NCBI GenBank assembly: GCA_029238255.1
Contig: JAQWGK010000046.1
Coordinates: 32,708 to 96,707 of the forward strand
DNA: 64,000 nt
Direction: 5' to 3'
From: Porticoccaceae bacterium
GTDB taxonomy: Bacteria; Pseudomonadota; Gammaproteobacteria; Pseudomonadales; Porticoccaceae
The notes under the pieces are model-generated. The model was not told the DNA's origin and did not search any database. It worked only from the letters and a program-made list of their open reading frames with translations. Every line of letters begins with the position of its first letter. Positions within the stretch are counted from its first letter, which is position 1. A program made the position numbers and the translations under genes. Positions 1,758-44,648 of this stretch are shown here, in pieces.

Positions 1758-2990
1758 ATGACAAGAGTGAAGTTAACTATGAGAAGCGGTAAATCTTTTA
1801 GAGCACCTTTTATTAGCGGACTAAACCTACTAATAACCCTGCTACTGCTTACCACACCAGTAACAACAGCCTATGGTGCCGTAGATAAAATAACCTCTTC
1901 AACCACCCTAACACTGGCAACACCGTCGCGATCATTTCCCATAGAGTCACTGTTAGATGTGGGCATTCCAACCCTTAATGACGGGCTCTATCTCACCGAC
2001 GAAGACGACACAGTTTTTCCCGAAGTTCGCTATGCAGAGGCCATTTACTTCTCCAACCAGCTGGGCAAAGTTTTAGAGAAAAGCGGCGCCTGGGGAGCTA
2101 TTCGAGTGACTCCCAACAGTGATGTGATTATGGATCTGTATATCACCGGCACCATCTTTCAGTCCGATGGGGAAACCATGGATCTGGAAATTAAAGTGGT
2201 CGATAGCAGCGGCAAGCAGTGGCTAAAAAAGCGCTATAAACAAACCACCGGCAAATACGCCTATGACCGGCGCTTAAAAAGCCTCGGCGACCCCTTCCAA
2301 AATCTGTTTATCCGGATTGCCAACGACCTGCTCAAGTATCGTGAAAAAATCAGCGATCAGCGAGCGGAGGAACTGCGCACTATCTCTGAACTGCGATTTG
2401 CCAAAAAATTCTCGCCAGAGGCTTTTGACAACTATGTAGAGGAAGACCGCAAGGGTATTTTGAGTATCTCGCGACTGCCCGCCGAAAACGACAGCATTCT
2501 TATTCGCGTACGCAAAATTCGCGAGCGGGATTATCTCTATGTCGACACCATGCAGGATTACTACGACGGCTTCTCCCAGCAGATGCATCTGGCCTATCAG
2601 GATTTTCGTCGCTCCTCCTACGACTCTGTCGTCAAAGCGCGACAGCTAAATGCTCAGGGCAACCGACAGGTTATCGCCGGTATTGGCGCTATTCTGGCGG
2701 GAATTTACGGCCGCTCTCAGGCCCGCACCAGCATGGCTGATGATGCCGGCACCGCCACCGCTGCAGTCGGTGGTTTTGTGATTAAATCCGGTCTCGACAA
2801 AAAACAGAAAGCCTCGGAATTCAACGAGTCGGTAGCAGAGATGGGCTCCTCTTTAGAAGCGGAAATTGCCCCTCAGGTTATCGAACTGGAAGATCGCACC
2901 GTCACCCTGACCGGCACGGTTCAGGCCCAGTATCAACAGTGGCAGGAACTGCTCGGCAAGATCTATCAGCAAGAGCGCGGAACACCCTAA
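1758..2990 (+). CDS. Secreted hypothetical protein with a Gly/Ala-rich C-terminal segment
   Basis: 410-aa ORF starting 7 nt after the upstream stop. The N-terminal hydrophobic signal-like segment is LLITLLLLTTPVTTAYGA. Glycine-zipper-like stretches (IAGIGAILAGIYG, AAVGGFVIKSG) lie near the C-terminus. Confidence 0.5.
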   Translation: MTRVKLTMRSGKSFRAPFISGLNLLITLLLLTTPVTTAYGAVDKITSSTTLTLATPSRSFPIESLLDVGIPTLNDGLYLTDEDDTVFPEVRYAEAIYFSNQLGKVLEKSGAWGAIRVTPNSDVIMDLYITGTIFQSDGETMDLEIKVVDSSGKQWLKKRYKQTTGKYAYDRRLKSLGDPFQNLFIRIANDLLKYREKISDQRAEELRTISELRFAKKFSPEAFDNYVEEDRKGILSISRLPAENDSILIRVRKIRERDYLYVDTMQDYYDGFSQQMHLAYQDFRRSSYDSVVKARQLNAQGNRQVIAGIGAILAGIYGRSQARTSMADDAGTATAAVGGFVIKSGLDKKQKASEFNESVAEMGSSLEAEIAPQVIELEDRTVTLTGTVQAQYQQWQELLGKIYQQERGTP

Positions 2991-2993
2991 ACC

Positions 2994-4487
2994 ATGGATA
3001 CCAGAAACGCCAAACCGACCAGCGCACATCCGGCTTTTAACGGGCACAGCAACAGCCCGCAAAAACCGCTGAACAGTGGCGCGCGTCAAAATGGGGTTCA
3101 AAAAATTGTTATCTCTGTACTTCTGCTGATCGCCACTGTGGTAATTTTTGTCCTCCCCAGGGGCGTCACCGAACCCTGGATTAACTATTCGGCGCAGACT
3201 GAAAATACCCCCGTTAAGCCAACAGCTACTGAAGTCAGTCCCTCGACAGCGGCAGAAAAAACTAAATACCGGCAAGATGCGCAAACGCTATTGGCGCAGA
3301 TTATTGCCTACCGCGACCGCCTTCAGGAAAAGCGAGTCGAGCTGTGGGGAGAGTTTGAATACAAGCAGGGAATAATGCAGATAGAGCGTGGCGATCAGCA
3401 ATACCAATACGGCGAATACGCTGAATCTGTTGCCAGCTACCAGAGCGCCCTCGACCAGCTAAGCGCTCTTGAGGGCCGAGGAAAAACGATTCTCAGCGAA
3501 GCTATAGACAGCACCGCCAGCGCCATTGAAGAAAATATTCTCAGCACCGCTACCACCGCTATAGAACTGGCCAACGCCATGGCTCCCGACAGTAAGCAGG
3601 TGCAACAGCTCAGCCAGCGAGTAGCCAACTTGCCGCAGCTAATCGAAGCGATGCAACTGGGCGAAAAGCTTAGCGCACGCAGCCAACTCAGCGCTGCCAA
3701 AGAAGCATTTAATAACGCAGTTAAACTGGATCCAGAACATAAAAAAGCCGCCGCTGCACTGGCTAAAACCAACCAGAAAATCACCGAACAGCGCTTTCGT
3801 GGTTTTATGAGTGAAGGCTTTAGCGCACTGGATAAGGATAACTTTGTCGAAGCCAAAGCGGCATTTAATCGAGCCGCCACAGTCTATACCGACCACCCTG
3901 CTGTGGCGCAGGCACTGGCACAGCTAGAGACACGCCGCTCGCAACTCTGGGTGACCAGTAATATGGCCCGTGCCGCGGAATTTGAAGCGCAGGAACAATG
4001 GCAGCGTGCCAAAACGGTCTATCAAAAACTGTTACTCGCTGATAGCAGTCTCACCGATGCCAAAGTTAAACAGATTCCGGTGGCCGTGCGCGCCGATTTG
4101 GATAAGCGTATCAACGCTATTATCGAAGACCCTCTCGCGCTTTCAGCTAGTAGCCAATTTCGCAAAGCCCAGCAAGCCCTGCAAGATGCTTCGGGCATTG
4201 CCACTCCCGGCCCAGTGTTAAAACAACAGATTGCCAGTCTCAGGGAGATTCTTAAAGCCTCCCAAACACCGGTAGAGATCGCCCTGACCTCCGACAGCAA
4301 TACAGAGGTCACCTTATTTAGAGTCGCCAAGCTCGGCACCTTTGATAAAACCTCGGTGGCCCTAAAACCCGGCCGTTATATAGTCGCCGGCACCAGAAGC
4401 GGCTATCGGGATGTACGGATTGAATTTACCGTCACCGGCAAAGGCTTCGACACACCGATCAGCATTAGCTGCAATGAGGCTATTTAG
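2994..4487 (+). CDS. Bitopic membrane protein with a periplasmic TPR-like helical region and a PEGA-like beta-sandwich C-terminus
   Basis: Starts 3 nt after the upstream stop. One TM helix (VISVLLLIATVVIFVL) follows a basic N-terminus. Ala/Gln-rich helical repeats follow. The C-terminal LKPGRYIVAGTRSGYRDVRIEFTV resembles a PEGA motif. Confidence 0.5.
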   Translation: MDTRNAKPTSAHPAFNGHSNSPQKPLNSGARQNGVQKIVISVLLLIATVVIFVLPRGVTEPWINYSAQTENTPVKPTATEVSPSTAAEKTKYRQDAQTLLAQIIAYRDRLQEKRVELWGEFEYKQGIMQIERGDQQYQYGEYAESVASYQSALDQLSALEGRGKTILSEAIDSTASAIEENILSTATTAIELANAMAPDSKQVQQLSQRVANLPQLIEAMQLGEKLSARSQLSAAKEAFNNAVKLDPEHKKAAAALAKTNQKITEQRFRGFMSEGFSALDKDNFVEAKAAFNRAATVYTDHPAVAQALAQLETRRSQLWVTSNMARAAEFEAQEQWQRAKTVYQKLLLADSSLTDAKVKQIPVAVRADLDKRINAIIEDPLALSASSQFRKAQQALQDASGIATPGPVLKQQIASLREILKASQTPVEIALTSDSNTEVTLFRVAKLGTFDKTSVALKPGRYIVAGTRSGYRDVRIEFTVTGKGFDTPISISCNEAI

Positions 4488-4605: not shown

Positions 4606-6684
4606 ATGGTCGATAAAAAAGACGCCCAACCACTGACTGCAACCGACTTTACGCCGCTAAAAAGCAAGGCGCAAAAGCGTGGCACCCGACCGTCTGCGGC
4701 ACTGCTGTTAACCACCTTATTCACCGTGGTCGCACTGGTAATTCTAATATTCTTATTTGCCGCACGGGCCATTATCCTGCGCCTCGACCCAACCACTGCG
4801 GTGGTTGATATTAGCGGCCTGAGCTTTCATATTGGTGATAACTATCTTCTGTTACGCGGAGAGCATCAACTCAGTGCCGAAGCTCCGGGCTATTTCCCTC
4901 TAAGTAAAACCATAGAGGTCACCGATCAGGCCACCCAGGAGATCGACGTCGAGCTGCAGCCCTTGCCGGGCAATCTTTTGGTCAATGCCAGCCTCAGTGA
5001 GATAGAGGTATTTATTGACGACCAGTTAGCGGGCACAGTGCCGGGAACTCTCGAAGGCATTAGCCGCGGCGCCCACAAACTCGAATTTAAAAAATACCGC
5101 TATTTCCCCCTGCAACAGGAAGTCGAAATCGAAGGGCTGGGTAAAACTCAGGCCATCGACATTTCCCTGCAACCGGCCTGGGGGCATATTGATTTCATAT
5201 CCGATCCGACCGGTGCAGAGCTGTATATTGATAATCGCCTAATCGGCACAACCCCAATTTCAGCGGAAGTACTGGAAACCGGAAGTCAGCTAACCCTGAA
5301 AGCCAGCGGCTATAAAACCCTGCAACAGCAGGTAACCGTTAAAGCCGGCAGCAAAGCTCAACACCCATTGATCGAAATGATCGTTGCCGATGGCACCCTG
5401 TCTATCAACAGCTCTCCTGCGGGCGCCAGCATTACCATTGATCAACAATTCGCCGGTGTCAGCCCTTTAACCGTTGATGTAGCCCCCTTTGCAAAGCATA
5501 GAGTCGAGCTATTTCTCGAGGGCTATCTAAAAGCCAGCCGCACCCTGCAGGTAAAACCCCAGCAGCAGGCGGAGCTCAGCGTCGACCTCAGACCCAATAT
5601 AGGCACGGTGCAGCTTACAGTCAGTCCCGCAGATGCGGTGGTTAAAGTAGATGGCAAGCCATATAGCAGTGGCAGCCAGACCCTGTCTCTCAATGCCAAG
5701 CCCCACAGCATTAGCGTGGAAAAGCCCGGCTACCAGACCAAATCCATCAGTATCACCCCCAGACCCGCCCATCAGCAGGCATTGACCATCAAACTGCTAA
5801 CGCTGGAGCAGGCCTACTGGGCATCTCGTCCGCCACAGCTAAAGAGCTCAGTGGGTATCAACTTAAAACTCTTCCGCCCCGATCCACAGCAGCCGTTTAT
5901 GCTCGGCGCACCGCGACGCGAGCCGGGCAGACGAGCCAATGAAGCGGAGCGCTCCGTCGCCCTGCAGCGACCCTTTTATCTGGCCACCCATGAAACCACC
6001 AATGCCCAGTACCGGCAGTGGAAAGAGCAACACAGCTCTACCGCCATTAAGGGTCAGACCCTGGATATGAATGATCAGCCAGCCGTCAAAGTCAGCTGGG
6101 AAGATGCCGCGCTATTCTGTAACTGGTTGAGCCGCAGAGAGGGTTTAGCACCGTTCTACAAGGTCGAGCAGGGTCGGGTTACCAGCTTTAACTGGGATGC
6201 TCCCGGCTACCGACTGCCTACCGAGGCGGAATGGGCCTGGGCAGCAAAAATTGATCTGCAGTCGAAAAGCCATATATTCCCCTGGAGCAATGACCTCTAT
6301 CCGCCGCAGGAGATCACCGACAACTACGCGGATAAAAGCGCCAGCGCTTTTCTGACCTTTACCCTGCCCAACTACAATGACCAGTATCCAGTATCGGCGG
6401 TGGTGGGTAGTTTTGAAGCCAACAGCAAAGGGCTCTACGAAATCAGCGGCAATGTCGCTGAATGGGTCAATGACTACTTTGATATCCGCCCAAGCCGCGG
6501 CGAACCTCAACTCGATCCTCGGGGTCCACAGCAGGGCAATAAACATGTGATTCGCGGTGCCAGCTGGGCTCTGGCCTCACGCACAGAGTTGCGTCTTAGC
6601 TACCGAGATTCCGGCAACGATGGACGCATTGATCTGGGCTTTAGAATCGCCAGATATGTTGATAAACCCGGAAGTGATCTATGA
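4606..6684 (+). CDS. Bitopic membrane protein: multiple PEGA repeats fused to a C-terminal FGE-sulfatase (SUMF1/EgtB/PvdO) fold domain
   Basis: N-terminal TM helix LLLTTLFTVVALVILIFLFAA. Repeated PEGA-like motifs (AEAPGYFPL, FKKYRYFPLQQEV, LKASGYKTLQQQV, LEGYLKASRTLQV, VEKPGYQTKSISI). C-terminal FGE-fold signatures (RLPTEAEWAWAA, GNVAEWVNDYF, IRGASWA, LGFRIARY). Confidence 0.75.
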   Translation: MVDKKDAQPLTATDFTPLKSKAQKRGTRPSAALLLTTLFTVVALVILIFLFAARAIILRLDPTTAVVDISGLSFHIGDNYLLLRGEHQLSAEAPGYFPLSKTIEVTDQATQEIDVELQPLPGNLLVNASLSEIEVFIDDQLAGTVPGTLEGISRGAHKLEFKKYRYFPLQQEVEIEGLGKTQAIDISLQPAWGHIDFISDPTGAELYIDNRLIGTTPISAEVLETGSQLTLKASGYKTLQQQVTVKAGSKAQHPLIEMIVADGTLSINSSPAGASITIDQQFAGVSPLTVDVAPFAKHRVELFLEGYLKASRTLQVKPQQQAELSVDLRPNIGTVQLTVSPADAVVKVDGKPYSSGSQTLSLNAKPHSISVEKPGYQTKSISITPRPAHQQALTIKLLTLEQAYWASRPPQLKSSVGINLKLFRPDPQQPFMLGAPRREPGRRANEAERSVALQRPFYLATHETTNAQYRQWKEQHSSTAIKGQTLDMNDQPAVKVSWEDAALFCNWLSRREGLAPFYKVEQGRVTSFNWDAPGYRLPTEAEWAWAAKIDLQSKSHIFPWSNDLYPPQEITDNYADKSASAFLTFTLPNYNDQYPVSAVVGSFEANSKGLYEISGNVAEWVNDYFDIRPSRGEPQLDPRGPQQGNKHVIRGASWALASRTELRLSYRDSGNDGRIDLGFRIARYVDKPGSDL

Positions 6685-6935
6685 TCGGTTGCAGCAAAAA
6701 TCAAAACAGAATTTGCAGTTTTTGGCTGGCACTTTCTATCTTGGCGACAGTCTTTTTTCCAGCGACTGCCTTTTCAGTAGAGACAGAAGAGACCGGAGAA
6801 AACCCCGCCGAGTCATTGCCCGAAAATAACAGTCAGGGGGATCAGGCCGAACAACCGCCAGAGGCCCCTGAGGACTTTAAGCCTAGCGAAGAGATCTCCG
6901 AAGACTTCCCGGTTCCTCTTCCATCAGATATCTAA
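6681..6935 (+). CDS. Small secreted acidic protein
   Basis: ATGA start/stop overlap with the upstream gene implies translational coupling. Signal-like segment ICSFWLALSILATVFFPATAFS. Acidic, proline-rich mature part. Confidence 0.45.
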   Translation: MIGCSKNQNRICSFWLALSILATVFFPATAFSVETEETGENPAESLPENNSQGDQAEQPPEAPEDFKPSEEISEDFPVPLPSDI

Positions 6936-6968: not shown

Positions 6969-7763
6969 ATGAAAAGTCATACCAATGAGATGTTCTTCCA
7001 ATTAATCGCCCTGCTACTGGCAGTGATTGTTGTGCACGCGATCTTTGTCACCGTCGTGCGCCCCAATGCCGAGAGCACCATTCGCCAACACGCCGAGATG
7101 GCTGCCGCAGGTGAAGCCTACGAAGTACCGCGATCATTCTTTATTGTGATCAAAGACTTCGAGCAGGAAGCCTGTTTTATTCTAATGTTCTGGGCTCTGG
7201 CCATCATGGGTTACAAAACCCGCAGTGCCATGAACGAACAAAAAATGTTCGCCACACAGTTGGTCTCAATTAGCGAGGGCTCGAGGGTCTTGCCCGAGGA
7301 TGCCAGTCAACTGGCAAGGCCACTGCAATCTCTGCCGGAGGATCAACGGCCGCTACTACTGCCCCGGGCACTGCAAACCGCCCTGACCCGATTTCAGGTG
7401 ACCGACAGTGTTCAGTCCGCAACCGATGCGGTCAATACAGTGTGCAGCAATGAAAATGATCGTCTCGACTCGGAACTGTCGATGGTTCGCTATATCACCT
7501 GGGCAATTCCCTCGATTGGATTTATCGGCACAGTACGCGGTATAGGTGCGGCACTGGGTCAGGCTCATGAAGCCATGGAAGGCAATATTGCCGGCGTTAC
7601 CAGCAGCCTTGGAGTAGCCTTTAACTCAACCTTTATCGCCCTGCTAATCAGTATGGTGGTGATGTTTTTTATGCACCAGCTACAACTTATTCAGGAGCGA
7701 CTGGTACTGGATTCCCACGCCTACTGTGAAAACAATCTGCTGCGATTTTTAAAAGCGAAATAA
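6969..7763 (+). CDS. MotA/TolQ/ExbB proton-channel family protein
   Basis: AGGA sits upstream of the ATG. The C-terminal signature WAIPSIGFIGTVRGIGAALG...SSLGVAFNSTFIALLISMVVMFFM matches the conserved TM2-TM3 hairpin of the ExbB/TolQ/MotA family. An N-terminal TM helix is also present. Confidence 0.8.
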   Translation: MKSHTNEMFFQLIALLLAVIVVHAIFVTVVRPNAESTIRQHAEMAAAGEAYEVPRSFFIVIKDFEQEACFILMFWALAIMGYKTRSAMNEQKMFATQLVSISEGSRVLPEDASQLARPLQSLPEDQRPLLLPRALQTALTRFQVTDSVQSATDAVNTVCSNENDRLDSELSMVRYITWAIPSIGFIGTVRGIGAALGQAHEAMEGNIAGVTSSLGVAFNSTFIALLISMVVMFFMHQLQLIQERLVLDSHAYCENNLLRFLKAK

Positions 7764-7766
7764 ACC

Positions 7767-9083
7767 ATGAGCACTGCTGTTCTCGAACTTAATGATCAGG
7801 CGCTACTGATTAAAACTCAGGCCGGTGAAGTCTATTCCGAGCCGGGCTTTGCCCTGCATACAGAACAGGGCATTATCACCGGTCTTCCCGCCCGTCAGCA
7901 GGCCTGGCTACAGCCGCAAAATATCTATCGCGAGTACTGGCGACAACTCAATCAGGCACCGCTGTCTGGCGATCAGCAGTGGGCCCGCCATCACGCCGAT
8001 ATCGCCTATGCCCAGCTGCACAGTCTGCTGACCAAAGCCGGTACCCCTGAGCAGTTAGTACTCTGCGTTCCCAGTACATTCGATGATCAGCAACTATCAC
8101 TATTGCTTGGCTTAATAGATGCTATCAACACAACCGTAGTCTCAGTGATAGATAGCAGTCTCGCCAACTGTCTGTATCTGGAGGACTATATTGAAAATCT
8201 TCAGACTATTCAGGCAGCGGAAAAACAGACCCTGCATATTGATTTACAGATGCACCAAATGGTTGTCAGTCAGATTAGTTTTGAGCGCAACAGTCTGCGT
8301 ATTGAAGCTCATCAGGTGATTCCGGATCTAGGTGCCAGCCATATCTTCAATGCCCTCGCCGGCTATATCAGAGATCTGGCAATCAAAACCCATCGCTTTG
8401 ACCCACTGCATACCTCCGAGGGCGAACAGGCTATTTATGATCAACTTCCCAGTCTGGTGGCGCGCTTTGGCGGTATCTCTGAATGCGACCTAAGCCTCAG
8501 CTCACCGCGAGGAGATCTACCGATGCTACTGCGCAAGAGCGAAATCGAAGCGCTACTGGAACCCCGCCTGCAGAGCTTAACTCGACTGATCAGCAACAGT
8601 GCCGCCGCGGATATCACCCTCTCCCACAACACAAAATTGATCCCTGCCCTGCACTCAGGTTTTAGCCACGCACGACAACTCAATGAGACTCAGGCGGTTG
8701 ATAACTGCCTAAGGTCTTACGACAGCCTTTTAAAGCACAGCGAAAATCTTCACCGTATTACCTCATTTGAGCAAAAAGTTACCTATAGCGGCAGGCGCAA
8801 AACAGATATAGCACCACCAAAACCGGCCACCCATCTGCTCTATCAGGGTCGAGCCTGGCCCCTAAACGAGCCCCTCAGTATTGGGATAGATGGCAAGCGT
8901 CTGAATATTACTCAGTTAGTCGACAGCAGCGCGGCACTGGTTGTCTCAATCAATAACCACAGCCTCAATATTCTCTATCGCGACAACCAGATTTCAATAG
9001 AACTGCCAGAGAGCGCCGCACCCGGTGGGAAAATTTTTATCGGTGACTTTCGACTGCAATTAATCGAGGTCTGCAATGGCTAA
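7767..9083 (+). CDS. Cytoplasmic protein with a degenerate actin/Hsp70-like ATPase fold and a possible FHA-like C-terminus
   Basis: No signal peptide or TM helix. LVLCVPSTFDDQQLSLLLGLIDAINTTVVSVIDSSLANCLYL parallels the Hsp70/actin-fold segment (vitVPa.f.d.qr...ag..v..li.Ep.AA). The N-terminal AVLELNDQAL replaces the phosphate-1 DxG motif. The C-terminal LSIGIDGKRLNI...KIFIGDFRLQLIEV looks FHA-like. Confidence 0.4.
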   Translation: MSTAVLELNDQALLIKTQAGEVYSEPGFALHTEQGIITGLPARQQAWLQPQNIYREYWRQLNQAPLSGDQQWARHHADIAYAQLHSLLTKAGTPEQLVLCVPSTFDDQQLSLLLGLIDAINTTVVSVIDSSLANCLYLEDYIENLQTIQAAEKQTLHIDLQMHQMVVSQISFERNSLRIEAHQVIPDLGASHIFNALAGYIRDLAIKTHRFDPLHTSEGEQAIYDQLPSLVARFGGISECDLSLSSPRGDLPMLLRKSEIEALLEPRLQSLTRLISNSAAADITLSHNTKLIPALHSGFSHARQLNETQAVDNCLRSYDSLLKHSENLHRITSFEQKVTYSGRRKTDIAPPKPATHLLYQGRAWPLNEPLSIGIDGKRLNITQLVDSSAALVVSINNHSLNILYRDNQISIELPESAAPGGKIFIGDFRLQLIEVCNG

Positions 9084-10134
9084 GAAGCGCCGCAATATTG
9101 CCTTTAGTCTCTCCTTTCTGGACATTATGGCCTGTGGCTTTGGTGCGGTAACTCTGCTGTTTTTAATTCTTCGCCACAATGCCACCGAAATTGAACTACC
9201 TGACCCCAGACTGGCCTCGGAAGTCGATCTGCTGCAGGAAGATATTCGTCAGGCGGAAGAGGAAAAGATCGAACTACTAAATAGCCTTGAACAGTTGCAA
9301 CTGCAGCTAGTCACTGCACAGGGTGCTTCTGAAAGAGTGATTACCGATCTTCAGGAGCAGGAAAAAAGCATTCAGGCCGACCCCAAAGATGATATTGCCA
9401 AACTGCGCCGTCAAGTAGAGCAACTGGAAAAAGAAACCGCGCAGATGGAAGAGGTTGAGTTTGGCGACAAGGTCCGCGAATTTCTTGGGGATGGCAATCG
9501 CCAGTACCTCACCGGCCTTAAACTCGGTGGCGAGCGGGTAATGATTCTTGTGGATGGTTCGGCCAGCATGCTCGCCGATACCGTGGTCAATGCCGTGCGC
9601 CGGCGCAATATGGATGACAGCCTAAAAAAGCAGTCGCCAAAATGGGTATGGACCCTGCGCACCGTCGAGTGGCTGCTTGCCCAACTGCCACCGAGCAGTC
9701 GCTTTCAGGTCTATATCTTTAACACCGGCACCGAGCCAGCAGTTATCGGCACTGAGGGTGAGTGGCTGGATGCTGCAGATTCTCTGGCACTGGAAAAAGC
9801 CGTCGAGGGACTGCGCAATTATTCACCGGGCAATGGCACCAGCCTTATCAATGCTATTGCCGCAGTCAATGACTTTGAAAACAAACCGGACAATCTGTTT
9901 TTACTCACCGACGGATTGCCTACTCAGGGCGCCAGCGCACCGAAAAAATATATGGTCAGCGGCCGCCAGCGCCGCGACTTCTTTGCCGCCGCAGTGAATA
10001 GCCTGCCGCGAGGTATTCCGGTCAATACGATCTTATTCCCAATGGAGGGTGACCCGGAAGCCGCCGCGATGTTCTGGCAACTGGCACTAAATACACAGGG
10101 CGCCTTTATTGCCCCCTCGCGAGACTGGCCATGA
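9076..10134 (+). CDS. ExbD/TolR-like TM anchor + coiled coil + periplasmic vWA domain with an intact MIDAS
   Basis: 8-nt overlap with the upstream gene. The basic N-terminus KKRRN is followed by SFLDIMACGFGAVTLLFLIL, with an Asp at the TM entry as in ExbD FIDVMLVLL. A heptad-rich, Glu/Gln/Leu-rich segment follows. The vWA motifs are VMILVDGSASM (DxSxS), GNGTSL and LFLLTDGLP. Confidence 0.7.
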   Translation: MAKKRRNIAFSLSFLDIMACGFGAVTLLFLILRHNATEIELPDPRLASEVDLLQEDIRQAEEEKIELLNSLEQLQLQLVTAQGASERVITDLQEQEKSIQADPKDDIAKLRRQVEQLEKETAQMEEVEFGDKVREFLGDGNRQYLTGLKLGGERVMILVDGSASMLADTVVNAVRRRNMDDSLKKQSPKWVWTLRTVEWLLAQLPPSSRFQVYIFNTGTEPAVIGTEGEWLDAADSLALEKAVEGLRNYSPGNGTSLINAIAAVNDFENKPDNLFLLTDGLPTQGASAPKKYMVSGRQRRDFFAAAVNSLPRGIPVNTILFPMEGDPEAAAMFWQLALNTQGAFIAPSRDWP

Positions 10135-11120
10135 AACGCCAACGCCGAGCCTCTCAGGAAGCCAGCATTTCATTTTTGGATGTTATCAGCTGTGGCTTTG
10201 GCGCTATTGTCCTATTGCTGGTGATAGCCCGAGTTGGCGATCCCGCCGCCCTTGAACAGGCGGAAAATAAACTGCGCGCCACGGTAAAAGAGTATCAGGA
10301 GCGCCTGTTTGATGTGCGCGGTGAATCCGTCGTGCTTAACGAACAGCTTAAATCCCGCAAGGAACAGCTCTCCGATCTCACCGAGCGTGTAGCCCGCCTG
10401 AAAGCCAAACTGGCCAGTGTTGAAAAGCAGTCCGTGCAGATATCCCAGTCCGAAGCGCGGGAAAAAAAGCAGTTGCAGCTAGTGATGCAGGTTCTCAGTG
10501 AAGAAATGGAGCGCCTGCTCGGCCCGGAGTTTAAACAGCAGAATAAATTGATTGGCGGTATTCCAGTCGACAGTGACTATATTATTTTTGTGATCGACAC
10601 CTCCGGTAGTATGCAGGTCGCGGCCTGGGAAAAGGTCAAAAAAGAGATGATCAATATTCTCGATATTTACCCGGATGTTAAAGGCCTGCAGGTGCTCAAT
10701 GATATGGGCCAGTATATGTTCTCCGCCTACCGTGGACGCTGGATACCAGATAGCCCGGAAATGCGTCAAACCATCGTCACCACTTTAAACACCTGGGCGC
10801 CCTTTAGTAATTCCAGTCCGGTTGAGGGCATTAATGCAGCGATCCAGACTTTTTACAAAGCCGACCGCAAGATCAGTATCTACACCCTCGGCGATGACTT
10901 TCAGGGTCGCTCTATTCGCAATATAGTCAAAGCCATCGACCGGTTAAATCAGGCCCACCGCGGCGCCGACCGGCTGGTGCGTATTCATGCCATAGGCTTT
11001 CCTGTGCACTTTCCACCGGGCGGAACTCCCAGCGCCTCAGCAATTAAGTTCGCCGCTCTTATGCGTGAACTAAGCTATAACAATGGGGGAACCTTTATTG
11101 GCCTTAACAGCCTTAATTAA
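10131..11120 (+). CDS. Paralogue of the upstream gene: ExbD/TolR-like TM anchor + coiled coil + vWA domain with a partly degenerate MIDAS
   Basis: ATGA overlap with the upstream gene. KRQRR is followed by SFLDVISCGFGAIVLLLVI. A coiled-coil-like segment follows. The vWA motif is YIIFVIDTSGSM (DxSxS), but the later MIDAS positions differ (SSPVEGINAAI, IYTLGDDF). Confidence 0.7.
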   Translation: MKRQRRASQEASISFLDVISCGFGAIVLLLVIARVGDPAALEQAENKLRATVKEYQERLFDVRGESVVLNEQLKSRKEQLSDLTERVARLKAKLASVEKQSVQISQSEAREKKQLQLVMQVLSEEMERLLGPEFKQQNKLIGGIPVDSDYIIFVIDTSGSMQVAAWEKVKKEMINILDIYPDVKGLQVLNDMGQYMFSAYRGRWIPDSPEMRQTIVTTLNTWAPFSNSSPVEGINAAIQTFYKADRKISIYTLGDDFQGRSIRNIVKAIDRLNQAHRGADRLVRIHAIGFPVHFPPGGTPSASAIKFAALMRELSYNNGGTFIGLNSLN

Positions 11121-11133
11121 AGGAATCATAATT

Positions 11134-11748
11134 ATGCAGCTATCTAAACTATCAATTATCACCGGCCTTTTTGCCCTGCTATTCATCACTGGCTGCAGCT
11201 CATCGGCACAGGTTCAGGTGGACCGAAACTTCCCGACCGTGGTCTCAAAACCCAAAGCGGTCAGCGCCTCGATTATTTTTAACGACGAATTTAAAGACTA
11301 TGTAGCCACACCGAGCAAGAAAACCACTATCGATATAGGCGCAGCTCAAACCCTTATGCTCGGTAATGCCTTTGCCGGGCTGTTTAGCAATATTGAATTT
11401 GTTCAGTCCAAAGATCAGGTAAGCCTTGAAAATGCGCTGGTAATCACCCCATCGGTTCAGGAAGTTCAGGTCTCCACACCCTCAGATACCTATTTAAATG
11501 TCTATGAAGTGTGGATCAAATACAGCCTCGATATTGAAAACTCACAGGGCGATCAGATCGACAGCTGGTTTATGCCCGCCTACGGCAAGACACCAGACTC
11601 TTTTATGCTGTCAAAAACCAATGCCATTGAAGAAGCGGCCGTTATCGCCCTGCGCGATGCCGGCGCCAAATTACTTCTCGACTTCTACCGTATCCCCAGT
11701 ATCTACAATTGGATGCTACGGGAGCAAAAGCTGGGAGGGGAACAGTGA
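11134..11748 (+). CDS. Lipoprotein, hypothetical
   Basis: ATG at 11134 is preceded by AGGA and lies 13 nt after the upstream stop. MQLSKLSIITGLFALLFITGCSS is a signal peptide plus lipobox. The listed longer ORF from 11083 overlaps the upstream gene. Confidence 0.6.
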   Translation: MQLSKLSIITGLFALLFITGCSSSAQVQVDRNFPTVVSKPKAVSASIIFNDEFKDYVATPSKKTTIDIGAAQTLMLGNAFAGLFSNIEFVQSKDQVSLENALVITPSVQEVQVSTPSDTYLNVYEVWIKYSLDIENSQGDQIDSWFMPAYGKTPDSFMLSKTNAIEEAAVIALRDAGAKLLLDFYRIPSIYNWMLREQKLGGEQ

Positions 11749-12410
11749 ATAAATTTTTCCCACTGCTTATAGCAGCACTAACAACCGCTCTACTCACCGG
11801 CTGCGGTGCCACCACCAGCATCGATGAATACCGTCCAAACAATAATATTATGGAAATTAATAGCGATGAATCGGTGGTTATCCTCGGGCGCAGAGATGCT
11901 GGACATTACGATACGGATAGGGAATTTATCAGCTGTATCGGATCGAAAATGCAGGGCGCGGATATTAGCGTTATGCCCGAACAGCAGTTTATCGACTCTA
12001 TCTACCCCTGGTTTGAACCACGCACCGCACCCAAGGGGTTAAAGCGTTTAACCTATTTAATGAAAGACCCGGATATCAAAAGTCAGGTCGACCGACAGGG
12101 TGTCCGCTATCTGGTATGGCTCGATGGTTCAACCCAAACCCTTGAACAGGGCGGTTCCATTAGCTGCGCGATAGGCCCAGGAGCCGGTGGCTGTTTCGGC
12201 TTTGCCCAGTGGGAAAAAAGCTCTATTTATGAAGCTATAGTCTGGGACCTGAACGACTTTAGTGAAAAGGGCCGACTCCGTGTAGACTCCTCTGGAACCT
12301 CGTACCTGATTGGCGCCGTGGCACCTATACCGCTTTTAACACCGGTCAAAAAAGATGCCTGTAGCAGTCTTGGCAAACAGCTAAAAAAATTTTTTAGCGT
12401 AGATAACTAG
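11745..12410 (+). CDS. Lipoprotein, hypothetical
   Basis: GTG at 11745 overlaps the upstream stop (GTGA) and is preceded by GGGAGGGG. VNKFFPLLIAALTTALLTGCGA is a signal peptide plus lipobox. Confidence 0.55.
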   Translation: MNKFFPLLIAALTTALLTGCGATTSIDEYRPNNNIMEINSDESVVILGRRDAGHYDTDREFISCIGSKMQGADISVMPEQQFIDSIYPWFEPRTAPKGLKRLTYLMKDPDIKSQVDRQGVRYLVWLDGSTQTLEQGGSISCAIGPGAGGCFGFAQWEKSSIYEAIVWDLNDFSEKGRLRVDSSGTSYLIGAVAPIPLLTPVKKDACSSLGKQLKKFFSVDN

Positions 12411-12432: not shown

Positions 12433-13863
12433 GTGAGACGTTTAAATTTTCAGCTGACTTTTTCTGTTCTATTGTGGGCATCAATGCTCACAGTTGCCTT
12501 AATGCCAGTGCCACTGGCGGCAAAAACTACCGGCGAAGATATCTACAAAGAAGTGCTGCAATCGACGCCCATTTACGACGACCCAGTCCTCGATAGCTAT
12601 ATCAAAGAGCTCGGTAATGAAATTGTCGCCCAGTCGGAAATGGCCGGCGAAGAATTTACCTTTACCCTGCTCGACTCACCAGACCTCAATGCCTTTGCCA
12701 CCCGCGATAACTATGTCTACGTCAACCGCGGCCTGCTCAACTATGTTAGCAACGAGGCACAGCTAGTCTCGGTACTCGCCCACGAAGTCGGGCATATCAC
12801 CAGAAAACATGTCACCGGCCAGGAGGGCAAGGCAACCGGTGCACAGATTCTATCGACCATCGCCGCCGTGCTCTCCGGCAGCGGTGAAGTCTACGAAGCC
12901 GGTATGGCTTACGCCAATTCAATTATCCGCGGCCATGGTCGTCGCAACGAACTCGAAGCCGACGAAGCCGGTGCCGAATATATGGCCAAGCTCGGCTACT
13001 CGCCCAGCGAAATGATCAGCATGCTATCGATTATGAAAGACTACGAAATACTGCAAAAAGATCGCGCCAAAGCCAGGGGAGCAAGCAAGCAGACCTATCA
13101 TGGTATTTTTGCCAGCCACCCGCGCAATGATTCGCGACTGCGAACCGTGGTCAGCAAGGCCCAGCGCCTGCAGTCGACCGAGACCCGCGGCGATGGCGCC
13201 GCCAGATATCGGGAACTCACCGAAGGACTAATCTGGGGCGAAAACTTTCTCGCCAAAGAGAAAAAACCCGAGCGCTACTCGGATATGAAACTGCGGGTAC
13301 GCTTTGATTACCCAAAAGACTGGACTCAGACCAATAATGCCAGCCAACGCAGTTCGGTGGGCACGCCTGAGAGCAAAGAGGCCAAACTCAGCATGACACC
13401 GATTGCGCGCACCGCCCAGAGTCCTGAAGAATATCTCTACAACTTTCTCAAGGCGGCAAAACTCGAACAGGGCAGCGCCATCTCCCCTGCCGGGCTAAAG
13501 GGTTTTAGCGGCATTTTGCCCGGTGGTGAAAGTGGTCCCGACCAGCGTATTGCGGTTATCTATTACAAACTCAATGCCTTTGTATTTAAGGGTGAAGTGG
13601 ATAAACCGGCGCAGTTTGCCGACACCGATAAACTGTTTGTCGAATCGATTAAAAGCTTTCGACCCATTTCACGCCGTGAAATCGCCGGCCAGAAACCGAA
13701 AACCATTCACTATGTGAAAGCCACCAATGCCACCAACTTCGACGCGTTGGGCAAGGCACTGAATCTTAACGCCACGGAATTAGATGATCTGCGTATAATC
13801 AATGGTCATTACCCCAGCGGCGAGCCAGTGGCCGGCGATTGGATAAAAATCTTTAAACAGTAA
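12433..13863 (+). CDS. M48-family zinc metallopeptidase, secreted, with a possible LysM-like C-terminus
   Basis: Signal peptide. The HExxH motif occurs in LAHEVGHITRKH with a downstream E (NELEADEAG), as is typical of M48 peptidases. GTG start lies 22 nt after the upstream stop. Confidence 0.75.
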   Translation: MRRLNFQLTFSVLLWASMLTVALMPVPLAAKTTGEDIYKEVLQSTPIYDDPVLDSYIKELGNEIVAQSEMAGEEFTFTLLDSPDLNAFATRDNYVYVNRGLLNYVSNEAQLVSVLAHEVGHITRKHVTGQEGKATGAQILSTIAAVLSGSGEVYEAGMAYANSIIRGHGRRNELEADEAGAEYMAKLGYSPSEMISMLSIMKDYEILQKDRAKARGASKQTYHGIFASHPRNDSRLRTVVSKAQRLQSTETRGDGAARYRELTEGLIWGENFLAKEKKPERYSDMKLRVRFDYPKDWTQTNNASQRSSVGTPESKEAKLSMTPIARTAQSPEEYLYNFLKAAKLEQGSAISPAGLKGFSGILPGGESGPDQRIAVIYYKLNAFVFKGEVDKPAQFADTDKLFVESIKSFRPISRREIAGQKPKTIHYVKATNATNFDALGKALNLNATELDDLRIINGHYPSGEPVAGDWIKIFKQ

Positions 13864-14628: not shown

Positions 14629-15396
14629 CTAGGCCATCAACTCGGCAAAGAACTTGCGCAAGCCATCAGCGCCAGACTGTTCCCAAGTTTTTAATGCCGC
14701 AGTACCAACAATGGCCATATCTGCAGAACCGCGCAAGAAGTCCATATCTTCCTTGCCGCTAATACCAAAGCCAACACCAATCTGCGCATCGGTATGCTGG
14801 CGACAGCGTTCGATCAGTGCCAGAACATCATCACCCATATTGGTTTTAGAACCGGTCACACCTTTGCGGGCAACCACATAAACCAAACCGCGACTAACAG
14901 CACCCAGCTGTGCCAGACGCTTATCACTGCTGGTCGGTGTCATCAAAATAATTGGCTCAATACCCGCCTCTTCCGAGAGACGATGAAGATTGGCTGACTC
15001 TTCTACCGGTAGGTCGGGCAGAATATAACCAACACCACCCGCCGCTTTAAGGCGCTTAACAAAGGTCTCTTCACCCATTTTAAAGACCGTATTGTAGTAA
15101 CCCATCATCAGCAGCTGAAAAGGAAAACGTTCGCTAGCCTGCTTCATAAACTCAAAGCAGTCCTCAACCGTAGTACCCGCCTTTAGAGACTGTTCGTTGG
15201 CGTTAACGAATAACGGGCCATCGGCACTGGGCTCAGAAAATGGAAACTGCAACTCAACCAGATCAACACCGGCTTCGGCCATAATCTCCAGTTCTTGCAT
15301 ATTGGCTTCAAAGGAAGGGTAACCGCAGACCACATGGGCCATGACCAACAGATCTTTATCTTTTTTACGTTCGGCAAGAAAGCTTTGCAGACCCAT
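14629..15396 (-). CDS. trpA: Tryptophan synthase alpha subunit
   Basis: Full-length similarity pattern to TrpA (GYPSFE...VDLVELQFPFSEPSADGP...). The start overlaps the trpB stop (ATGA). Confidence 0.9.
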   Translation of the reverse strand: MGLQSFLAERKKDKDLLVMAHVVCGYPSFEANMQELEIMAEAGVDLVELQFPFSEPSADGPLFVNANEQSLKAGTTVEDCFEFMKQASERFPFQLLMMGYYNTVFKMGEETFVKRLKAAGGVGYILPDLPVEESANLHRLSEEAGIEPIILMTPTSSDKRLAQLGAVSRGLVYVVARKGVTGSKTNMGDDVLALIERCRQHTDAQIGVGFGISGKEDMDFLRGSADMAIVGTAALKTWEQSGADGLRKFFAELMA

Positions 15397-16655
15397 TAGT
15401 TTTTCTCCCCGCGGTACTGATCCGCTTTGCCTTCAATAAAGGTCTTCCACTTGGCATCATCTAAAGCATCGGCAATGGTAAAGATATCTTTATCACCGCG
15501 ACCGGATTGGTTGATCAAAATAATTTCGTCTTTACCCATAGTCGGCGCTTCTTTAATGGCCGTTACAAAAGCATGGGTACTCTCCAGCGCGGGAATCAAT
15601 CCTTCCGTACGCATGGTCAGTCGCAAGGCTTCCTTCACTTCAATATCGGTGGCCGCTTCAAAGCGAACCTTACCCTTGTCGTGGAGATGAGAAAAGATCG
15701 GGTTGACGCCGATATAGTCGAGGCCGGCGGCAACCGAATGGGTTTCATTCATATTGCCTTCATCATTCTGCAGGAAGTAGGTTTTAAAACCCTGAGCGAC
15801 GCCAACAGTGGCATCATCATAGGCCAAACGGGCAGCGTGCATATAAGTACCCACACCCTCACCACCAGCTTCACTGCCGATCAGCTCAACATTATCATCG
15901 TCGAAAAAGCCCTGGAAAATACCCATGGCATTTGAACCACCACCGACACAGGCGTAGACACGATCCGGCAATCTGCCGGTCTGAGCAAGCATCTGCTCGC
16001 GAGCTTCAAAGCCAATAATCGACTGGAACCAGCTGACCATCTCCGGGAACGGATGAGGGCCACAGGCAGTGCCGAGAATATAATGCGTATCGGCCATATT
16101 GGTTACCCAATCGCGCATTGCTTCATTAATTGCATCCTTAAGGGTCTTCTGACCATCTTGAACAGCGATAACCTCAGCACCGAGATTTTCCATCCAGAAC
16201 ACATTGGGACGCTGGCGTGCCACATCGACGGCACCCATATAAATTTTACAGTCAAAGCCAAAGCGCGCCGCCATGGTCGCCGTCGCGAAACCGTGCTGAC
16301 CTGCACCGGTCTCTGCAATCACCTTGCTCTTGCCAAGGCGCTGACATAGGAGGCCCTGCCCCATCACATTGTTCACCTTGTGGGAACCGGTGTGATTAAG
16401 ATCTTCACGCTTGACATAAATCTGAGCACCACCCAACTTGCGCGACAGGTTTTCCAAATGAGTCACCGGGGTGGGTCGGCCAGAGTAGCTCTGCATCAAT
16501 GCAACATAGTCCTGCCAGAATTTTGGATCCGATTTGCATTCGCGAAAACAGACCAGCAACTCTTCAATCGTTGCATGTAGAATTTCAGGCAGAAAAACGC
16601 CGCCGTATTCCCCGTAGTAGCCTTCACGACCGTCGGAGAAGTCAAAAATATCCAT
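15396..16655 (-). CDS. trpB: Tryptophan synthase beta subunit
   Basis: PLP-lysine motif HTGSHKVNN, GGGSNAMG, and N-terminal YYGEYGGVFLPE. I chose the ATG at 16655 (MDIFDF), preceded by GAGG, over the longer ORF start at 16715. Confidence 0.9.
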   Translation of the reverse strand: MDIFDFSDGREGYYGEYGGVFLPEILHATIEELLVCFRECKSDPKFWQDYVALMQSYSGRPTPVTHLENLSRKLGGAQIYVKREDLNHTGSHKVNNVMGQGLLCQRLGKSKVIAETGAGQHGFATATMAARFGFDCKIYMGAVDVARQRPNVFWMENLGAEVIAVQDGQKTLKDAINEAMRDWVTNMADTHYILGTACGPHPFPEMVSWFQSIIGFEAREQMLAQTGRLPDRVYACVGGGSNAMGIFQGFFDDDNVELIGSEAGGEGVGTYMHAARLAYDDATVGVAQGFKTYFLQNDEGNMNETHSVAAGLDYIGVNPIFSHLHDKGKVRFEAATDIEVKEALRLTMRTEGLIPALESTHAFVTAIKEAPTMGKDEIILINQSGRGDKDIFTIADALDDAKWKTFIEGKADQYRGEKN

Positions 16656-16765
16656 GGAAACCTCAATAGAAAGCGGTCTACTTCTCGGAAGGAGACCGCT
16701 TTTTGGATGAAACAAAATTAGGTGCTTAGTTTATCCAAGTCACCAGACTGACACAACGTTCAGAT

Positions 16766-31940: not shown

Positions 31941-32987
31941 ATGTCCGACAATAAAATTAGACTTACCCAATACAGTCACGGCGCCGGTTGCGGCTGCAAA
32001 ATCGCGCCCGCCGTATTGGAGACCTTTCTTAAAACTGACTACATAGCGCCCGATGATCCGCGCCTGTTAGTTGGTAATAACACTAAAGATGATGCTGCGG
32101 TCTATGATCTTGGCGATGGCACCGGAGTAATTAGTACCACCGACTTCTTTATGCCGATTGTCGATGACCCCTTTGAATTTGGCCGCGTTGCTGCCGCCAA
32201 TGCCATCAGCGACATCTATGCCATGGGCGGCACACCGATGATGGCGATTGCGATTTTAGGCTGGCCGATCAATCTGCTGTCTGCCGAGGTGGCGCAAAAG
32301 GTTATTGATGGCGGGCGACATGCCTGTGGTGAGGCTGGTATTCATCTGGCCGGTGGTCATTCTATTGATTCGCCGGAACCCATTTTTGGTTTGGCCGTTA
32401 CCGGCCGGGTAGCGCTTAAAAAGCTAAAGCAGAACAGCACTGCCAAAGCAGGCGATCTATTATTCCTGACTAAACCCATTGGTGTGGGAATTCTTACCAC
32501 TGCTGAAAAGCAGGGTAAATTAAAGCCTGAACATTCGCGCCTCGCGGTGGAAAGCATGATGAAGCTAAACACCATCGGTGCTGATCTGGCAGAGGTCGAT
32601 GGGGTTAGCTGTATGACCGATGTCACCGGCTTTGGTTTGCTCGGTCATCTGCTGGAGATTTGTCAGGGCAGTAATTTGAGGGCAACGGTTAATGTTAAAG
32701 AAATTCCACTGTTAGATAATGCCGTTATTGATTACCTCAATCAGGGCTGCGTTCCCGGTGGCAGCACCCGCAACTGGGAAAGTATTAGCCAGTATATCAG
32801 TGGCACTAATCAGCAGAGCCAAACATTGCTCTGTGATCCGCAGACCAGCGGCGGCCTGTTAATTGCGGTCGAACCAAAAGATGCGGATAAGGTGAGCCAA
32901 ATACTTAAACAGGCCGGTTGTTATGATCGGTCAATTGGCGAGCTGGCAGCTGTTACCGATAGCCCGCAGATCAGGGTTATTTTATGA
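31941..32987 (+). CDS. selD: Selenide, water dikinase (selenophosphate synthetase), Cys-type
   Basis: N-terminal [15 protein letters not shown] and an AIR-synthase-like fold pattern. The stop overlaps the selU start. Confidence 0.9.
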
Positions 32988-44572: not shown

Positions 44573-44648
44573 GCCCGGTTAGCTCAGTTGGTAGAGCAGA
44601 GGATTGAAAATCCTCGTGTCCTTGGTTCGATTCCGAGACCGGGCACCA
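44573..44648 (+). tRNA. tRNA-Phe (GAA)
   Basis: 76 nt with a cloverleaf, the anticodon loop ATTGAAAAT and an encoded CCA end. It is nearly identical in pattern to E. coli tRNA-Phe. Confidence 0.95.

Follow-up and report, generated by a model that had tools for sequence, protein, structure and literature searches.

Paired transmembrane vWA proteins encoded beside a MotA/ExbB/TolQ-like gene in a Porticoccaceae bacterium, candidate B-type subunits of a proton-driven motor

What is the role of two adjacent genes for related membrane-anchored proteins that lie close to the gene for a MotA/ExbB/TolQ-family motor protein, in a cluster without any gene for the usual motor partner ExbD, TolR or MotB? 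This question is raised by a locus of a Porticoccaceae bacterium (GenBank assembly GCA_029238255.1, contig JAQWGK010000046.1, forward strand, positions 32,708 to 96,707). The whole stretch of 64,000 nucleotides, here called the window, was analysed and its own numbering is used throughout. The two genes, at 9076-10134 (protein A) and 10131-11120 (protein B), encode proteins with one predicted transmembrane (TM) helix, a long helical stalk and a vWA (von Willebrand factor A) domain. Judged from gene context and conservation, a role as B-type stator subunits is the most likely one for this pair. We consider it probable that the two proteins serve as paired subunits in a proton-driven 5:2 motor, belonging to the predicted "transpore-helix vWA" (TPH-vWA) kind, with the MotA/ExbB/TolQ-like protein encoded at 6969-7763 as the pentamer.

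BLASTP identifies A and B as paralogues (E 8e-14, 23% identity from end to end), and the AlphaFold2 (AF2) models of both show an N-terminal helix, a long helix and then an alpha/beta domain (mean predicted local distance difference test score 88.5 for A and 75.5 for B). A preliminary description of this DNA had presented them as paralogues with a shared N-terminal motif, heptad-like segments and a vWA domain, and all of this was borne out; the coordinates it gave for the pair are exact, and the short strings quoted in it (VDGSASM, GNGTSL and LLTDG for A, IDTSGSM, SSPVEGI and YTLGDD for B) were all found. Both N-termini start with a basic patch, MAKKRR in A and MKRQRR in B, followed by the highly conserved motif S-F-L-D-x-x-x-C-G-F-G-A, and the TM motifs of the two proteins are nearly identical. 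The Asp comes third in the hydrophobic segment (FLD16 in A and FLD17 in B, compare FID25 in ExbD) and has the same setting as D25 of ExbD and D23 of TolR, hydrophobic-hydrophobic-D-[VI]-[ML].

A similarity search over 1.84 billion cluster representatives returned 1271 clusters at E ≤ 1e-3, with 267 at E ≤ 1e-30. Conservation was read from an A-family set of 104 full-length representatives (50%-identity clusters, 30-73% identical to A) and from two B sets, 36 orthologues drawn from genomes and 121 further B sequences. The TM Asp16 is kept in 104/104 A representatives, in which G23, L27, S162 and D279 are likewise invariant. In B, D17 and the entire FLD...CGFGA core are invariant in 36/36 orthologues and in 121/121 further sequences. 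Conservation of the Asp in orthologues, one of the points on which the preliminary description had let its idea stand or fall, thus holds in all sets. When A and B are aligned together, the invariant columns are the TM Asp, a Gly and a Leu of the TM helix, the central Ser of the metal-ion-dependent adhesion site (MIDAS), one Trp and one further Gly.

Between TM helix and vWA domain, the sequence of both proteins is strongly heptad-periodic. The hydrophobic power at period 3.5 is 1.34 for residues 44-126 of A and 1.89 for residues 38-130 of B, compared to 0.2 +/- 0.2 in 2000 shuffles (p = 0.0005 for A and p < 0.0005 for B), and AF2 places its long helices at the same stretches. Across the pair the heptad-periodic helix is 83-93 residues long, and in B a single register puts core-hydrophobic residues at 18 of the 27 a/d positions. 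The stalk lengths of A and B co-vary (Asp-to-MIDAS spacing, Spearman rho 0.86 over 78 loci, not corrected for phylogeny). According to the positive-inside rule, stalk and vWA domain would be located in the periplasm.

The gene two positions upstream of the pair encodes the MotA/ExbB/TolQ-family protein (PF01618, 52.2 bits versus a cutoff of 22.9). In an alignment with ExbB and TolQ of E. coli, for which the ExbB and ExbD references were checked against 5sv0 and 6tyi, T188 corresponds to T148 of ExbB and T221 to T181; both pore Thr are at least 95% conserved in 71 orthologues. A scan of genomes, one per species, yielded more than 599 stretches with a motif match, and the locus comparisons were made with the best 80 of them, nearly all of which are labelled Gammaproteobacteria. 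Cultured carriers among them are Microbulbifer agarilyticus (L029), Congregibacter variabilis (L044) and Kineobactrum sediminis (L040). Every locus that is long enough shows the same order: the 410-aa gene, the TPR gene, the gene for five PEGA domains and an FGE-sulfatase domain, a small open reading frame (ORF), the MotA-like gene, the 438-aa gene, A, B and two lipoprotein genes; in most gammaproteobacterial loci the M48 peptidase gene is next. A and B are adjacent and 1:1, with B absent solely where the contig ends just past A. Wherever the sequence reaches far enough upstream, the MotA_ExbB gene is present there, with one exception (L085); the synteny extends to all gammaproteobacterial loci that could be tested and to three of four distant ones, Verrucomicrobiota included. 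No exbD, tolR or motB gene is found inside the cluster in about 80 loci; a lone ExbD/TolR-like ORF lies about 9 kb away in one locus. Among the proteins of the operon, only A and B have an acidic residue in a TM helix. Since the cluster contains a MotA-family gene with both Thr, has no exbD, tolR or motB, and shows the TM Asp in A and B only, the pair is most likely to act as stator-B.

A stop and B start are joined by an ATGA overlap, and the 438-aa gene upstream overlaps A by 8 nucleotides, so that all three genes are translationally coupled. A scan of the cluster for promoter- and terminator-like sites inside the operon gave no count above that of shuffled sequence. Near-identical proteins in public data carry Porticoccaceae/SAR92 labels, which points to a marine gammaproteobacterium as the origin of the window. 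Five loci with the full gammaproteobacterial cluster (L007, L027, L051, L054 and L082, 45-73% identity to the window's proteins) come from metagenome-assembled genomes labelled Rhodothermales, Saprospiraceae, Phenylobacterium or Enterobacteriaceae; binning contamination or mislabelling is more likely here than a true host range.

The four distant loci show how old the arrangement is. A and B form distinct orthology groups in all of them, Verrucomicrobiota included, and since the pair persists and A and B are separable in distant lineages, the A/B duplication is old. One of these loci, L086, is from Puniceicoccaceae bacterium K14 (Verrucomicrobiota), as is the sequence P0373. It contains the PEGA/FGE protein (L086:1-2060), the MotA-like gene and a gene of about 499 aa at the position of the 438-aa gene, the product of which had no phmmer match to the 438-aa protein. 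The counterpart in L084 is detectably homologous to this protein and L087 is without the gene. The PEGA/FGE protein, kept in the gammaproteobacterial loci, is also encoded in L087 (5008-7014), and at the position of the 84-aa gene a small ORF is located in L086 (88 aa) and L087 (50 aa).

A pair of this kind has been predicted before. From gene neighbourhoods and AlphaFold 3 (AF3) models, a TPH-vWA family was proposed that consists of TM-tethered vWA proteins tightly linked to tolQ-like genes, without tolR or exbD (Mol Biol Evol 42:msaf138, 2025, PMC12204202). According to the accessible text of that paper, these proteins occur "predominantly in heterologous pairs" in Proteobacteria and Verrucomicrobia, have a conserved Asp in an ExbD/TolR-like transpore helix and are without the SHLS motif; in the AF3 model of a pair both Asp are located inside the TolQ-like pentamer with a ring of Thr around them, and no function is assigned to the family. 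The A/B pair has a single N-terminal TM helix and a C-terminal vWA domain, the TM Asp and the linkage to a tolQ-like gene without tolR, exbD or motB. The heterologous pairing, the lack of SHLS or any His in the TM helices of A and B, the Thr ring and the occurrence in Proteobacteria and Verrucomicrobia agree as well. We therefore regard the pair as a member of the predicted TPH-vWA kind, an assignment made by the features described in the accessible text, in which an Idiomarina locus serves as reference. The interpretation as motor subunits is reasonable and, as far as this text goes, already published as a prediction (PMC12204202). Our analysis adds to what this text contains the ancient A/B duplication with its 1:1 pairing, the coiled-coil stalk, the difference between the metal sites of A and B, and the partner genes (Hsp70-fold, PEGA/FGE-sulfatase, TPR, lipoproteins and M48). 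A literature search for the wider operon (MotA, vWA, PEGA and FGE-sulfatase) returned nothing relevant, and in the literature found the pair is described in PMC12204202 only.

How could such a motor work? A and B would each insert with the N-terminus inside and the C-terminus outside via their one TM helix, the Asp being its third hydrophobic residue as counted from the cytoplasmic side. The pentamer would enclose two helices, most likely one from A and one from B, which would take the place held by ExbD, TolR or MotB in known motors; their Asp would face the conserved Thr pairs and be protonated alternately. In the periplasm, each chain would continue as a heptad-periodic helix of about 85-95 residues, about 12-14 nm long and tipped by the vWA domain. 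Proton flow might turn or strain this stalk relative to the pentamer, and the vWA heads might pass the work to a periplasmic or outer-membrane partner that they hold via their metal-ion sites.

The term "ExbD/TolR-like", used in the preliminary description, has to be read with care. The position of the Asp is indeed that of ExbD and TolR, and as a label for position and context the term is valid, but a sequence relationship is not detectable. Neither A nor B nor any of 140 family members matched the ExbD/TolR family PF02472, the N-terminal 50 residues alone found nothing in Pfam, and no OmpA or MotB_plug domain was matched in the A/B family. In Pfam, NCBIfam and PADLOC, A and B had vWA and coiled-coil matches only, all below threshold, with no ExbD, TolR, MotB, TonB or defence family among them, and searches of full-length A and B against PDB sequences gave coiled-coil noise only. 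Like ExbB-ExbD, TolQ-TolR and MotA-MotB, the system has a pentamer-family gene with both pore Thr, chains with a small, basic cytoplasmic N-terminus, one TM helix and the Asp as third residue of the hydrophobic segment and, as we infer for A and B, two B-type chains per unit. Unlike these motors, it has two different B-type genes, no apparent third subunit of TonB or TolA type, and neither an ExbD/TolR periplasmic domain, the place of which is taken by coiled coil and vWA domain, nor a MotB plug or an OmpA domain. Demonstrable sequence homology to ExbD, TolR or MotB was rejected on the profile scores given below, while homology as such may exist. A and B thus stand outside these three families; what we claim for them is the same working position.

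Several observations count against a motor role of the pair. Searched against the PDB at E ≤ 10, a profile of the 45 positions of the TM motif retrieved no chain of ExbD, TolR or MotB and hit random TM helices instead (SLC15A4, E 0.8); applied to ExbD, TolR and MotB directly with all filters off (--max), it scored -0.6, -0.2 and -1.1 bits, respectively. The CGFGA core is foreign to all three families, and E176 of ExbB is aligned with a Val in the MotA-like protein, a result that depends on the alignment. On the distant metagenomic contig L085, the A-B pair (7736-9768) is surrounded by unrelated housekeeping genes; the contig reaches 7.7 kb upstream and 2 kb downstream, and no MotA-like gene lies on it. 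In addition, the correlation of stalk lengths ignores the kinship of the loci, and the TPH-vWA family is, in all its members, a predicted one.

The heads of the two proteins are well supported as vWA domains. For both AF2 models, the best Foldseek matches among PDB structures are vWA domains with a probability of 1.0; they include ITIH1, 4fx5, BatB, alpha2delta and ANTXR and, for A, ITIH1, 4fx5 and BatB (3ibs, 4jdu). The Pfam family VWA_2 was matched by 89 of the 104 A representatives (best 2.7e-12) and by just 11 of the 36 B orthologues; the window's own A and B are below the Pfam cutoffs. The preliminary description stated that only A has a complete MIDAS, which is right for the canonical motif. 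However, B has an invariant set of its own: D156-x-S158-x-S160, S226-N-S-S-P-V-E232-G and G254-D255 do not vary in 36 orthologues and 121 homologues. An invariant Ser stands at the Thr position of the MIDAS, and the Asp would be moved to GD255. By the secondary structure of the AF2 model, S228 is located two residues ahead of the helix that matches the one after Thr255 of A, and D255 directly follows strand beta-4, as D279 does in A; the sequence alignment instead pairs G254 of B with G280 of A, which puts the Asp two residues later. Among the 104 A representatives, S162 and D279 are kept in all, D160 in 95, S164 in 97 and T255 in 88; D160 is replaced by Glu in 8 and S164 by Gly in 7, T255 is replaced in 16, and the A copies of L084 and L085 read E-A-S-G-G-M at the DxSxS site. 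Judged by these counts, the constraint on the B site is stronger than that on the A site. The further proposal that A binds a metal-dependent ligand and B is merely structural is not supported, because the B site is invariant across the sampled lineages and the A site degenerates in distant ones. B is not a decayed "structural" copy, since its DxSxS, SNSSPVEG and GD do not vary, and it is A that has lost DxSxS in some lineages. With a canonical site in A and a distinct, more strictly conserved site in B, the two heads probably recognise different partners.

Whether A and B pair with each other is a separate question. The preliminary description had proposed a heterodimeric stator-B-like unit; the stator-B part agrees with context and conservation, in contrast to ExbD/TolR homology by sequence, and an A-B heterodimer is plausible, as suggested by the 1:1 adjacency, the translational coupling, the ancient divergence and the co-varying stalk lengths. 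Known 5:2 motors use homodimeric B subunits, and by analogy A2 and B2 homodimers might form two kinds of motor unit that share one pentamer, each with its own vWA head. The differing vWA sites would fit this arrangement, as would the stalks, which are 4-16 residues apart in length in most loci and have an interrupted heptad register in A and a continuous one in B. We nevertheless regard it as unlikely: the strict adjacency with coupled translation and the co-variation of the stalks argue against it, the nearly identical TM motifs offer no obvious means to enforce self-sorting, and the published AF3 model, as far as the accessible text describes it, was built on the pair (PMC12204202).

It might also be possible that the pair works without entering the pentamer, or apart from any motor. 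A second vWA family, described in the accessible text of the same paper, acts like TolA or TonB on the outside of the pentamer (PMC12204202), and A and B could be such peripheral force transducers with the pore subunit encoded elsewhere or absent, in line with the L085 pair that has no adjacent motor gene. This is improbable, since neither TM helix has an SHLS or His motif, the invariant intramembrane Asp would be left without a role, and exbD and tolR are absent from the operon in about 80 loci. A use as membrane-anchored scaffold or adhesion proteins, as in a Bat-like or a vWA/Hsp70-like regulatory complex that merely shares its operon with a MotA-like channel, is very unlikely. BatA and BatB are membrane-anchored bacterial vWA proteins with a TPR protein in their operon, BatB is among the many Foldseek matches, and an Hsp70-fold protein is encoded next door to A. 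A MotA-like gene and a TM Asp motif are, however, absent from the Bat system, and the operon studied here contains no MoxR or DUF58 gene and no significant BatC match, so that Bat membership was rejected. Furthermore, the retention of a charge in more than 260 TM helices calls for a functional reason, and the synteny with the MotA-like gene described above would have to be explained. A Zorya-like anti-phage system with a MotAB-type motor is hardly credible: the MotA-like protein is weakly similar to ZorA (PADLOC/NCBIfam E 0.01-0.03), but ZorB, ZorC and ZorD as well as any nuclease or helicase gene are missing, and family-level synteny across gammaproteobacterial loci beside housekeeping genes is not the pattern of a defence island. 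Zorya membership was thus rejected, with nothing found besides the ZorA match at E 0.01 in the MotA core.

For a motor with A and B as its paired B-type subunits, two known systems are instructive. The Myxococcus gliding motor AglR-AglQ-AglS combines a TolQ-like protein with two different B-type subunits and is therefore a precedent for non-identical B chains. It differs in that AglQ and AglS are small and TolR-like, without coiled coil or vWA domain, and in that CglB, the vWA adhesin, is a separate lipoprotein of the outer membrane. The motor is also mentioned in the accessible text of PMC12204202. The GldLM (PorLM) motor of type IX secretion and gliding, with its ring lipoprotein GldK (PorK), resembles the system described here in having a MotA-family motor protein, a bitopic subunit that forms an elongated periplasmic dimer and a partner with FGE-sulfatase fold encoded alongside. 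GldM, however, is not known to have an Asp in its TM helix or a vWA domain. In addition, the hosts here are Gammaproteobacteria and Verrucomicrobiota and not Bacteroidota, and the best NCBIfam match of the 692-aa PEGA/FGE protein, GldK (E 3.6e-26), scores far below the cutoff (92.4 bits versus 350). Membership in the type IX secretion system (GldKLMN/PorKLMN) was rejected, since GldL, GldM and GldN had no match and GldK stayed below its cutoff. The architectural resemblance to GldKLMN may serve as a lead, with no claim of membership.

The features of the cluster are listed in Table 1.

Table 1. Genes of the cluster and features of proteins A and B, in coordinates of the window
Feature	Position	Strand	Basis
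410-aa secreted protein, first conserved gene of the cluster	1758..2990	+	synteny
497-aa TM-anchored TPR protein, conserved operon partner	2994..4487	+	TPR_2 E 1.5e-6, synteny
692-aa inner-membrane-anchored protein, 5 PEGA domains and FGE-sulfatase (GldK/PorK-like) domain	4606..6684	+	Pfam PEGA 6.6e-48, FGE-sulfatase 4.6e-36
84-aa small acidic secreted protein	6681..6935	+	ORF
MotA/ExbB/TolQ-family protein, 264 aa, presumed pentameric partner	6969..7763	+	Pfam PF01618 E 6.8e-14
438-aa protein without TM segment, divergent Hsp70/actin fold	7767..9083	+	family profile against PDB
Paralogue A, 352 aa, bitopic: Asp16 TM helix, coiled-coil stalk, vWA domain with canonical MIDAS	9076..10134	+	ORF, AF2, Foldseek
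A, predicted TM helix, residues 10-34; Asp16 codon GAC at 9121-9123 in motif SFLDIMACGFGA	9103..9177	+	AF2
A, heptad-periodic helical stalk, residues 44-126, break near 101-102	9205..9453	+	AF2 helices 44-100, 103-126
A, vWA domain, about residues 150-352; MIDAS D160-x-S162-x-S164 (nt 9553-9567), T255, D279	9523..10131	+	Foldseek
Paralogue B, 329 aa, architecture as A; metal-site constellation non-canonical yet invariant	10131..11120	+	ORF, BLASTP, AF2, Foldseek
B, predicted TM helix, residues 11-35; Asp17 codon GAT at 10179-10181 in motif SFLDVISCGFGA	10161..10235	+	AF2
B, unbroken heptad-repeat helix, residues 38-130	10242..10520	+	AF2
B, vWA domain, about residues 147-329; D156-x-S158-x-S160 (nt 10596-10610), S226-N-S228-S229-P-V-E232-G, G254-D255	10569..11117	+	Foldseek, conservation
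Lipoprotein genes, 204 aa and 221 aa, directly downstream of B	11134-11748, 11745-12410	+	invariant lipobox Cys, synteny
M48 metallopeptidase with signal peptide	12433..13863	+	Pfam Peptidase_M48 1.4e-31

Several of the partner proteins give hints on the surroundings of the motor candidate. The 438-aa protein, encoded in most loci between the MotA-like gene and A, belongs to no Pfam or NCBIfam family and has no TM segment. In the PDB its family profile matched Hsp70 nucleotide-binding domains almost exclusively, along two colinear stretches and with a best E of 0.002. The glycine-rich phosphate-2 loop DLGGGTFD is replaced by IDLQMHQM, which suggests that the protein probably is an actin/Hsp70-fold protein with a degenerate nucleotide site, on the cytoplasmic side. 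By eye, its C-terminal approximately 90 residues resemble an FHA-type beta-sandwich.

The 84-aa protein, encoded directly before the MotA-like gene, is very acidic and probably disordered and ends in ...EDFPVPLPSDI. Its sequence is poorly conserved, and the small ORF at this position is detectably homologous to it in a few loci only. As a speculation, such an acidic peptide might be the kind of ligand that is bound by the MIDAS site. For the 410-aa protein and both lipoproteins, profile searches found nothing significant in the PDB and no family was matched; a C-terminal glycine-zipper-like stretch of the 410-aa protein resembles SlyB, weakly and without significance (E 0.23). At a lipobox-like position (consensus L-x-x-C), most orthologues of this protein have a Cys, which is missing from the ordinary signal peptide of the window's copy. 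The second lipoprotein (221 aa) has four invariant Cys besides that of the lipobox. In most gammaproteobacterial loci, B is followed by the two lipoproteins and the secreted M48 metallopeptidase; this order is absent from the distant loci.

Downstream, the neighbourhood of the cluster ends at two overlapping ORFs on the minus strand (14629-16715); by eye they resemble tryptophan synthase alpha (255 aa) and, with the pyridoxal-phosphate motif HTGSHKVNN, beta (439 aa). Further away, the window has low-GC stretches at 20-22 kb, 38-40 kb and 44-46 kb (0.42-0.43 versus about 0.49-0.52 elsewhere). Its only tRNA gene, tRNA-Phe at 44573-44648 (+), is located inside one of them, and this stretch could be an integration site or an island.

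Taking the partner genes into account, one could go further and picture the pair as the rotor or stalk of a complete trans-envelope machine that occurs from marine Gammaproteobacteria to Verrucomicrobiota. The two vWA "hands" of its heterodimeric B unit would act together with the inner-membrane PEGA/FGE-sulfatase (GldK/PorK-like) protein, with TPR and lipoprotein partners in the periplasm and, at the cytoplasmic face, with the Hsp70/actin-fold protein and its degenerate nucleotide site. Such a machine would be a functional analogue of GldKLMN or Agl-Glt that drives secretion, surface movement or remodelling of the outer membrane, and its Asp helix would have arisen by convergence, independently of ExbD, TolR and MotB. 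We put this picture forward as a doubtful one.

Known motors anchor to peptidoglycan, as MotB does, or hand their force to a third protein such as TonB or TolA. If A and B are the central subunits of a motor, the 5:2 proton-motor family would gain a class in which the central dimer itself bears heads for ligand binding, held out on a long coiled-coil stalk. With a B dimer that is asymmetric by nature, one could also mutate each Asp on its own and thus test their alternation in proton flow. Abundant marine heterotrophs such as SAR92/Porticoccaceae and Halieaceae commonly encode the system, and its conserved partner genes would be concrete candidates for the load that is pulled by the motor.

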